Position numbers and translations under genes: made by a program. The notes beneath the pieces are model-generated. The model was not told the origin of the DNA, searched no databases, and saw only the letters and a list, made by a program, of their open reading frames with translations. A stretch of 54,317 nucleotides of DNA from a virus. Location of the stretch: IMG/VR virus record IMGVR_UViG_3300045988_074365, positions 1-54,317 of that record. One strand, 5' to 3'. Below are positions 41,843 to 43,883 of this stretch, one piece after another (within the stretch, counting starts at the first letter, position 1; each line of letters starts with the position of its first letter).

Positions 41843-42153
41843 GGTAGATGAATATTGAAGACTTTATGTAGAGGTGAGATATGGAAGATTTAATACAAAT
41901 GTCTTTATTTGACTTCACAAGAGAACCGATCAACATAACAAAGCCTATACGATTGATAGAACTATTTGCCGGCTACGGAAGTCAGGCAATGGCGCTAAAG
42001 AGAATAGGTGCTAAATTTGAACATTACAGAGTTGTGGAGTTCGATAAGTACGCTATTGAAAGCTATAACGCAGTACATGGTACGGATTTTCCTACAATGG
42101 ACATAACTAAGGTCCATGCAGAAGATTTGAATATTTGCGACACAAATGCATTC

Positions 42154-42176
42154 ACTTACTTACTTACTTACTTACT
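42154..42176 (+). repeat. tetranucleotide repeat (ACTT) x 5.75
   Basis: acttacttacttacttacttact, counted base by base. It encodes the TYLLTY part of motif IV. Confidence 0.95.
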
Positions 42177-42649
42177 CATTCCCTTGTACGGATTTATCAG
42201 TTGCCGGGAAGCAAGCTGGAATGTCTAAGGGAAGTGGTACAAGAAGCGGTCTATTGTGGGAAGTTGAGAGAATACTAACAGAAATCAGAGATAGCAACGG
42301 AGAATTACCACAGATTTTGTTCATGGAGAACGTGCCACAAGTACATAGTCAGGATAATATGCCTGACTTTAGAAAGTGGCTAGATTTCCTCGAAAGCCTA
42401 GGTTACACAAATTACTATCAAGACTTGAATGCTAAAAATTATGGTGTAGCGCAAAATCGTGAAAGGTGCTTTATGTTTTCATTCCTGGGCGAGTACAATT
42501 ACCATTTCCCACAGCCTATACCTCTCAAAAAGAAGTTGAAAGACTATTTTGAGGATAATGTAGATGAAAAGTATTACATCAACAATGAAAAGACTGACAA
42601 GCTAATAAAACAGCTTATTGACAACGGCACATTGCCACAACACAATCTT

Positions 42650-42688
42650 GACAGACAGACAGACAGACAGACAGACAGACAGACAGAC
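42650..42688 (+). repeat. tetranucleotide repeat (GACA) x 9.75
   Basis: Nine full GACA units plus gac. In frame it encodes (DRQT)n. Confidence 0.95.
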
Positions 42689-43883
42689 TTGCGTTGACGG
42701 AACAATCAATAAACCACAGCAGAGAGAAGTTGCAAACTGTATCAAGGCAAGATATGACTGCGGAATATCAAACTTGCGGTCAGACGGAAACCTTGTTGTT
42801 AAAAGGAATGGTGGATAAAAACATAGAGTCTACGGCATCCGTGATTGATGTTTCCGTAGCGATTATGTCAAGAGATTACAAAGGACCAAATAACTACGGA
42901 ACGAATGGAGTGATTGAATGGAAGTAATAGGAAGTGTATATGTAGAAGTTTCAGACAGATTTCAAAAAGGCATTATCGGGGGGCATTTCCCGATGTGTAA
43001 AAGCTGAAAAACACGATTTAGGAGTAATTATGGCAGATGTAAACGTAATAGGCTCTCTTGAAGCGAAATTTGAGAGTACCAACAGAATTTATGACGTGAG
43101 GGGGTGTAGTCCGACATTGAGTACAATGCAAGGTGGAAATCGAGAGCCGAAAATTCTTGAAGTGAAGCAGTTAGGATTTATGGATAATGGAACAGGCAAG
43201 CACCAATCAAACACAGTATATGACGAAAATGCACTTTGCCCTAATATCACAACAGTCGAGGGCGGCGGTACAAAACAGATTAAAATATGTGAAAGTCAGA
43301 TAGTTGCTATGCGTGGCAGAAATCCAGACAATCCGTCAGATAGAACCGCAGGAAACCCAACGGAGCAGAGATTAGAGGTAAATATGCAAGGTACAAGTAA
43401 TTGCTTAACGAGTGTGCAAAAAGATAACATGGTTCTTGAAAAACAAGGCATATCCACTAAAGGCAAACAGAATGACATTGCAAGTACAATTTTGAGTGGT
43501 TACGAACGCAGTAATATGACCAGGTTTAATGCAGATAATGCCGTTATTGAAAAAAATTGGTCAAATATCAAGCAATGGTTCCCAATGTGGTACAGTTGTT
43601 TCCGATAACGGCATATCGGCTAATCTTGTAGCTGGCACACACGGATATGCAAATAGCCATATAGCTACACAATATCGTATCAGAAAGCTAACACCGAGAG
43701 AGTGCGGACGGCTGATGGGTGTATCTGATGAAGATATTGACAAAATGGCAGCAGTAAACAGTAATACGCAGTTGTATAAGCAATTCGGAAACAGTATTGT
43801 CGTAGATGTTATGTGTGCTATGTTTAAGAATTTGAACATCAATCAAGGAGATACAGTAGTGTAATAAGAAAGGAAACGCCAAT

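Follow-up and report, generated by a model that had tools for sequence, protein, structure and literature searches.

The multispecific cytosine-5 DNA methyltransferases (C5-MTases) of Bacillus phages (M.SPRI, M.Phi3TI, M.Rho11sI, M.H2I and M.SPBetaI; Trautner laboratory) combine one catalytic core with tandem modules of about 40 amino acids (aa) between two conserved motifs, VIII and IX, and are encoded by temperate phages with no cognate nuclease nearby. These features are shared by a C5-MTase gene at positions 41,881 to 43,864 of the 54,317-nucleotide (nt) IMG/VR virus record IMGVR_UViG_3300045988_074365, the whole of which was analysed and is referred to here as the window. The window gene differs from four Bacillus phage sequences compared with it (SPR, K02124; rho11s, X05242; H2, M72412; SPbeta, NC_001884) in having eight modules rather than two to four, with four modules that have no detectable Bacillus counterpart, and in being split into two open reading frames (ORFs) and studded with hypervariable repeats, whereas the four Bacillus genes are single uninterrupted frames. 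The locus is probably a naturally split, multispecific C5-methyltransferase controlled by contingency tracts.

Split C5-MTases are known both in nature and from protein engineering. Naturally split M.AquI has motifs I to VIII plus a portion of the variable region on one polypeptide and the rest of the variable region with motifs IX and X on the other, and when M.SssI, M.HhaI or M.BspRI is bisected in the proximal variable region, its fragments show complementation (PMC3404938). The present locus has the same partition of motifs, with its break in the proximal variable region, as these two-subunit or split enzymes (M.AquI alpha/beta, M.EcoHK31I, and engineered M.SssI, M.HhaI and M.BspRI). Those enzymes, however, are monospecific and have a fixed split, whereas in this locus a repeat determines where the first product ends, with one of three tails as the outcome, and we infer that the two products assemble.

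Phase-variable bacterial methyltransferases (Type III mod phasevarions and Type I hsdS/hsdM) resemble this locus in having tetranucleotide or pentanucleotide repeats and poly-G tracts within coding sequence, the lengths of which set the reading frame; in hsdS, truncation can alter specificity. The bacterial mod and hsd enzymes are N6-adenine methyltransferases, chromosomally encoded and found mostly in pathogens, whereas the present locus belongs to a gut phage and encodes a multispecific C5-cytosine enzyme, with conserved stop-free coding in all three frames and several tracts per gene. Among phages, slippage-prone contingency tracts are likewise found, as poly-G in the receptor-binding proteins of Campylobacter Fletchervirus and as homopolymers in T2 and T4 (bioRxiv 10.1101/2025.10.21.683753). 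Slippage at these tracts yields heterogeneous progeny, which is a form of bet-hedging. The discussion of the T2/T4 preprint cites only a single poly-G tract from a 'thymine methylase' gene of a phage, which it takes no further; neither a tetranucleotide three-frame switch nor an array of target recognition domains (TRDs) is described in it. These phage tracts are homopolymers, mainly in receptor-binding or other genes, as opposed to the tetranucleotide three-frame switch and TRD array of this locus.

The window gene was examined by three-frame translation, which located all six of the C5-MTase motifs that a preliminary description of this DNA had claimed, in canonical order (Table 1). The 657-aa protein obtained by repairing the frame in silico matches Pfam family PF00145 (E 1e-59), and its best solved relatives by PDB sequence search are M.MpeI (the closest) and M.HhaI; the single TRD of M.MpeI aligns with both a first and the last module of one homologue. 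The interval between motifs VIII and IX is 1.2 kb, as described, and holds eight modules (m1 to m8) with every signpost quoted for them and the strands LVVK, VIEW, GVIM, ILEV, IKI, VLEK and VIEK. The modules are of 37 to 51 aa each and have the core '(G/N)-x-(S/C/A)-(P/N/R/T)-(T/C/N)-(L/I/V)', with a short hydrophobic strand a few residues later. The gene is distributed over three reading frames with six discontinuities, namely the ACTT tract, the GACA tract, a change of frame between m1 and m2 near 42800, the stop codons TAA-TAG at 42925-42930, a run of six G (G6) and a run of seven A (A7). The (ACTT)5.75 and (GACA)9.75 tracts are the sole perfect tetranucleotide arrays of at least five units in the window, and G6 is the sole plus-strand run of at least six G. 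Other long ORFs of the window (1357, 1000 and 645 aa, for example) are unbroken, and therefore the frame breaks are specific to the C5-MTase gene. The preliminary description had understated this fragmentation and had missed the hypervariability of the repeats, which is the most interesting feature of the locus.

The assignment of the gene to the multispecific class of SPR, phi3T, rho11s and SPbeta, which had been proposed earlier, is borne out by alignment: the repaired window protein and the Bacillus enzymes have about 27% identity overall, a common 'VDEKYY(I/L)N.EK' segment after motif VIII, and apparent homology in the TRD region. Module by module, the proposed alignment found m2, m4, m5 and m8 to be homologous to Bacillus TRD-like regions, and no detectable homology for m1, m3, m6 and m7. 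Module m4 has 47.5% identity over 40 aa (z = 18 versus shuffles) to 'MVGHVDLKGHDAIKRVYSPEGLSPTLTTMGGGHREPKIAE' of SPbeta, in the variable region of SPbeta, rho11s and H2, and m5 matches the 'NPSGKGMNDQVYNSNGLSPTLTTNKGEG' region of SPR, rho11s and H2 (z = 8.9). Iterated profiles of m4, m5 and m8 built from relatives match every canonical Bacillus TRD-like region, as one class, of which the profiles find three copies (m4, m5 and m8) in the window protein. The m2 profile finds the SPR-specific 'ELAVSHTLSASDWRGLNRNQKQNAVVE', within variable region 68-100 of M.SPRI (E 1e-10). In Pfam searches with single modules, the m8 fragment extended through motifs IX and X matched PF00145 by way of its IX-X part, and the other seven had no match; the profile is weak in the TRD zone. 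By homology, the module array is SPR-like. Its length is not exceptional in this family, contrary to what had been supposed, as metagenomic homologues number in the thousands, intact ones range from 364 to 851 aa, and one of them (P0109) has about nine modules.

Relatives of the gene were collected in three sets: 80 IMG/VR loci with N-terminal domains 91-98% identical, seven ENA/Logan contigs with a common downstream gene, and 78 IMG/VR contigs from a pattern scan, many of which overlap the first set, for a total of about 150 contigs. Their sources are phage genomes of 50-60 kb, with related copies in metagenome-assembled genomes (MAGs) of Lachnospiraceae and Roseburia. No cultured relative was found by blastn and tblastn against GenBank phages, among which the sole relative with more than 60% identity is Dulem virus 39 (70%, a single 527-aa ORF).

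In 66 of 69 relatives both of two ORFs are present: ORF-A, which extends from the start through motifs I to VIII and into the repeat, and ORF-B, which extends from m3 to motifs IX and X. Gene calls on seven independent ENA/Logan contigs likewise list the two separately. After the repeat, ORF-A has three possible tails, designated x (an immediate stop, 'DLR*'), y (m1 and then a stop) and z (a linker, m2 and the stop 'VIEWK(N)*'); each added 4-nt GACA unit shifts the frame by +1, and the tail cycles through x, y and z. These states were found 17, 17 and 30 times, respectively, in the first set of relatives, and 20, 19 and 39 times, by tract length, in the pattern scan. The z linker is read across the DNA of m1, in a frame that is open in all 44 unique variants, with a ratio of nonsynonymous to synonymous substitution rates (dN/dS) of 0.94; we estimate that, with this base composition, a frame of 40 codons would be open by chance in about 5% of cases. 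In the other modules, alternative frames are almost always interrupted by stops, with the exception of one m5 frame that is open in 3 of 15 variants. Both readings of the m1 DNA are used by homologues, z by the single-chain proteins P0002, P0003 and P0008, and y by P0088, P0109 and L021. The ATG of ORF-B overlaps the z stop by 10-13 nt, and its start context, GGAGT[GA]ATTGA-ATG (GGAG-N7-ATG), is kept in 59 of 61 loci. The next module boundary (m4) also has (A)GGAG and ATG, spaced as AGGAG-N5-ATG; in the window the ATG is at 43030, an internal start within the frame-1 stretch, and is preceded by AGGAG at 43020-43024.

The preliminary description, in proposing that the frame be repaired, had implied a single chain with trivial lesions. 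On such a reading, the repair would yield one polypeptide with eight active TRDs and a very broad, constitutive anti-restriction activity. Eight modules are indeed present, fused homologues of up to 851 aa exist, and three relatives are uninterrupted, but this explanation is very unlikely. ORF-A in state z and ORF-B are in different frames across a junction free of repeats, so that no setting of the tracts fuses them, and m1 and m2 are alternative frames of the same switch, which cannot both be on one chain. An uninterrupted frame from motif IV to motif IX was found in 3 of 69 resolved loci, all of which have lost the modules that bear poly-G. In its relatives the gene is natively divided between ORF-A and ORF-B, with a junction read in three frames; this layout is conserved, and is not damage to be repaired. 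Two candidate lesions in the window, the A4 run that lies at 42801 and the stop pair TAA-TAG (42925), were rejected in view of the relatives, which show them to be native boundaries (the m1/m2 dual frame and the ORF-A/ORF-B overlap). A programmed -1 ribosomal frameshift at the overlap is not favoured, as neither TGG AAA AAT nor TGG AAG TAA is a canonical slippery heptamer.

Table 1. Features of the C5-MTase gene and two other genes of the window.
Feature	Position	Strand	Remarks
Motif I, ELFAGYGSQ	41959-41985	+	
Motif IV, SFPCTDLS	42176-42199	+	
Motif VI, ENVPQV	42326-42343	+	
Motif VIII, QNRERCF	42452-42472	+	
Motif IX, RKLTPRECGRLMG	43682-43720	+	
Motif X, GNSIVV	43787-43804	+	
ORF piece 1	41881-42228	+	ATG start, motif I; out of frame past the ACTT tract, stop at 42226-42228
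ORF piece 2 (rest of ORF-A)	42146-42697	+	Motifs IV, VI and VIII, 'VDEKYY' segment, GACA tract; ends DLR* at 42695-42697 (state x, no TRD tail)
(ACTT)5.75	42154-42176	+	Encodes T-Y-L-L-T-Y directly before motif IV
(GACA)9.75	42650-42688	+	In-frame DRQT repeats; junction of catalytic domain and TRD array
Module 1, CVDGTINKP..ANCIKARYDCGISNLRSDGNLVVK	42690-42818	+	Frame 0, own stop at 42816-42818; tail of ORF-A in state y
z linker, RLALTEQS..AEYQTCGQTETLLLK	42685-42804	+	Module 1 DNA in frame 1, stop-free; leads ORF-A into module 2
Module 2, ..VSVAIMSRDYKGPNNYGTNGVIEWK	42805-42930	+	Frame 1, ends TAA TAG (42925-42930)
ORF-B start and N-terminal part of module 3, MEVIGSVYVEVSDRFQKGIIGG	42907-42983	+	GGAG at 42907-42910, 7-nt spacer, ATG at 42918; frame 0; 10-nt overlap with end of module 2
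G6	42978-42983	+	Directly before module 3 core (GG|ISRCVKAE); 5 or 8 in frame, 6 out of frame
Frame-1 open stretch	42979-43554	+	m3 core 42979-43032, m4 43033-43164, m5 43165-43290, m6 43291-43443, m7 43444-43554
A7	43550-43556	+	Separates m4-m7 from m8 and motifs IX-X
Frame-2 piece	43556-43864	+	Module 8 at 43556-43675, motif IX, motif X, stop at 43862-43864; PF00145 profile positions 269-321
N6/N4-type methyltransferase gene	40856-41842		Intact, PF01555 (E 3e-22); directly 5' of C5-MTase gene
1357-aa ORF	17289-21362		Position and size typical of tape-measure gene

The (GACA)n tract is hypervariable, with 1 to at least 23 units among the 80 IMG/VR loci and every length from 3.75 to 16.75 units represented among the 78 contigs of the pattern scan. 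Loci with flanks that are 100% identical (600 + 250 bp) are found one unit apart (L001 versus L019; L003 and L004 versus L014), and over 8 kb the window differs from its 98.8% identical relative L102 by insertions or deletions at the ACTT, GACA and A6/A7 tracts only. Thus, tract length changes faster than the flanks. In other lineages the junction of the catalytic domain with m1 is occupied by different repeats: (AGAGC)n in 3 to 11 copies, and (AGAACAG)n in a homologue from a Treponema MAG (L089, 61% identical). None of the three unit lengths is a multiple of three. The poly-G tracts before the TRD cores of m3a, m3b and m4 range from 5 to 9 among relatives, and the A6 tracts of this gene show no variation. 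In L103 the tract is G8 and ORF-B is intact; L102 has G6 like the window. The ACTT tract has an in-frame length in 85 of 88 related loci, with 4 additional nt only in the window and L104 and, independently, in L106. The array is also highly mosaic, with 57 configurations in 73 loci.

Two further observations concern the same junction. Distant homologues (L089, L081, L091, L057, L062, L066-L068, L070, L071 and L077) have 7-nt or 5-nt repeats there, and several of these contigs end inside the repeat. One 469-aa protein (P0106, at 3501-4910 of L184) has motifs I to VIII and a short DRQT (GACA) tract fused to an HsdS-like domain (PF01420) with no TRD array; it is near the end of an ENA scaffold, and could reflect either a genuine exchange of domains at the repeat or a chimeric joining there.

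All of the mutational breaks are at repeats, and the GACA tract or its vicinity is where many contigs stop (twelve of them at or before the tract), as might be the case if the layout were an artefact of sequencing or assembly due to miscalled repeats and homopolymers. Such an artefact is hardly credible, however, considering that the same architecture is found in IMG/VR, ENA and Logan assemblies of different studies, that the A6 tracts do not vary, that tract lengths differ by whole units over a 20-unit range, and that flanking genes are intact in 98.5% of comparisons. The latter control used the ORFs that flank each locus itself; the neighbour genes of the window are common to few of the 80 loci, these phages being mosaic. 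Flanking genes were intact in 744 of 755 comparisons, versus 3 of 69 for the C5-MTase gene.

Selection was assessed segment by segment after DNA-anchored extraction; selection of variants by amino-acid pattern would bias dN downward. The dN/dS values are 0.04 for the catalytic core, 0.17 for m1, 0.39 for m2, 0.11 for m3a, 0.10 for m4, 0.05 for m5, 0.09 for m6, and 0.05 for m8 with motifs IX and X; of the nine segments tested, seven fall within 0.04-0.17. Purifying selection acts on the modules as read in their own frames. These values bear upon the possibility that the gene is a decaying pseudogene, useless in this lineage and frameshifted at its repeats, of which the window copy would be an advanced stage. 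Such decay could account for the six frame discontinuities of the window, two of which (the additional ACTT unit and A7) are private, and for the scarcity of uninterrupted relatives. It is nonetheless improbable: apart from that of m2, the dN/dS values of the modules are low like that of the catalytic core, stop codons due to point mutation are absent from the interior of the modules, and both the start of ORF-B and the openness of the z frame are preserved. Neither the expansion of repeats to at least 23 units nor the presence of three different repeat units at one site is expected from decay. Artefact and simple decay both explain the data poorly.

To judge from these comparisons, the locus is demonstrably an SPR-type multi-TRD gene that has hypermutable tracts where modules meet, is laid out in two ORFs in a conserved manner, and has a tail read in three frames. 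The slippage-prone repeats are the (GACA)n tract after motif VIII, the poly-G tracts before the cores of m3 and m4, and, more weakly, the (ACTT)n tract within the catalytic domain. By analogy with split C5-MTases, the products of ORF-A and ORF-B would assemble into an active enzyme, and the TRDs available to it would change with the state of (GACA)n and with poly-G states that detach m3 or m4 from ORF-B. Phage progeny would then carry differing patterns of 5-methylcytosine (5mC), and would be likely to benefit by hedging their bets, with protection against host restriction enzymes on one side and exposure to methylation-dependent restriction on the other. A more specific proposal, which is offered tentatively, is that the locus is a combinatorial selector of specificity, in which GACA would be a three-position switch for the catalytic subunit (no TRD, TRD 1 or TRD 2), making use of two overlapping frames in one stretch of DNA, and poly-G would independently attach further TRDs to the second subunit or detach them, such that one prophage could give rise to many 5mC patterns.

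The main rival to control of specificity is plain ON/OFF phase variation, for which the repeats of mod and hsd genes usually serve. ORF-B would be translated efficiently only in state z, by translational coupling at the 10-13 nt overlap of the z stop with its ATG; states x and y and out-of-frame poly-G would be OFF, and specificity would not change. State z is in fact over-represented, being found in 39 of 78 contigs by tract length where 26 are expected. However, purifying selection acts on m1 (dN/dS 0.17), a module that state y alone reads, ORF-B has a GGAG-N7-ATG of its own and m4 an AGGAG-N5-ATG, and the poly-G tracts are located exactly before TRD cores and not near the start of the gene. 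On balance simple ON/OFF switching appears rather unlikely.

In the window copy, three of the six discontinuities are native: (GACA)9.75, which sets state x, the m1/m2 dual frame, and the ORF-A/ORF-B overlap. The G6 tract is out of frame, detaching module 3, a state that is common to L102. The remaining two are slips private to the window: the additional ACTT unit, which puts motif I in frame 1 and motif IV in frame 2, and the change from A6, as in L102, to A7 at 43550. The window copy has neither one continuous frame nor intact subunits for the catalytic core, and motifs IX and X are on a third piece, whereas relatives have an intact ORF-A. With motifs I and IV in different frames, the window copy is OFF and cannot at present yield an active enzyme.

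Several points weigh against the interpretation of the locus as a contingency-controlled split enzyme. With its two extra lesions, the window copy may be no more than a dead gene. The relatives are not independent of one another phylogenetically and come mostly from one IMG/VR dataset, and the variation in tract length consists of differences between assemblies, not within one population. Purifying selection on the modules could persist through recombination with phages that have fused single-chain genes, the array being mosaic. For m1, m3, m6 and m7, neither alignment nor profiles detected homology to the TRD regions of the four Bacillus enzymes. When P0001, the closest intact homologue, was modelled with AlphaFold2 from a 70-sequence alignment, the core was confident and the module array, except for m6, had a predicted local distance difference test (pLDDT) score of about 30; at such scores the model is uninformative on whether the modules fold like TRDs. 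A split enzyme of this kind would also presuppose that the products of ORF-A and ORF-B associate, and that a TRD on the tail of ORF-A can work when not covalently joined to motif IX.

Multispecific phage C5-MTases, split C5-MTases, bacterial methylases driven by repeats, and some phage contingency tracts are already known separately. No description of a repeat-controlled multispecific phage C5-MTase was found in a literature that mostly did not extend to older subscription papers. The combination is well supported at the levels of sequence and population; its function is what we infer from them. Multispecific phage methyltransferases have been viewed so far as fixed, single-chain anti-restriction enzymes, and the gene considered here is split and repeat-studded in a widespread lineage of gut phages. 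If the proposed function is correct, the range of contingency loci, which takes in bacterial adenine methylases and the receptor-binding proteins of phages, would widen to the epigenetic counter-defence of phages, and the locus would be a natural example of the choice of TRDs by frame shifting, as well as a tractable system for the trade-off between protection from restriction and methyl-dependent restriction. A practical implication is that gene callers and virome pipelines will routinely annotate such genes as fragments or pseudogenes, and that assemblies tend to break at the tract.

The window is the genome of a temperate siphophage of gut Lachnospiraceae, of about 54 kb and 37.6% GC with nearly all genes on the plus strand. 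Among its genes are those for a terminase, a portal of SPP1 type, a capsid protein of E type and a large serine recombinase. An ENA contig (L104; ERZ28664679 scaffold_216, 54,253 bp, from SAMEA3665010 of the Zeevi cohort) has 100% identity to positions 37884-50285 of the window (12.4 kb), including the state of every tract, and is the same phage; SAMEA3665010 is probably the sample from which the window came. The C5-MTase gene is located between the N6/N4-type methylase gene and small genes of no known function. In relatives, one or two PF01555-type genes are present at the same place. Within this cluster of phage methylase genes, repeats load the C5 gene only.

A few other repeats of the window were noted. 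The longest G/C homopolymer outside the methylase gene is a C8 run at 52328-52335 (G8 on the minus strand), about 40 nt upstream of a minus-strand 261-aa ORF (51502-52287); this run might be a second tract prone to slippage, in this case within a promoter or 5' region. The 1000-aa ORF at 22137-25139, which had no match in a Pfam search, contains a 78-bp tandem repeat (3.4 copies, 74% match) at 23295-23558; it is downstream of the 1357-aa ORF and probably encodes a tail fibre with a repeated domain. An array of 5.8 copies of the 11-bp unit AAGTGAACAAC at 37578-37642, within the ORF at 37240-38034 of the replication region, has an iteron-like appearance, and another tandem array, with the 11/22-bp unit TTTAGTCTAAG, is located at 49363-49425.

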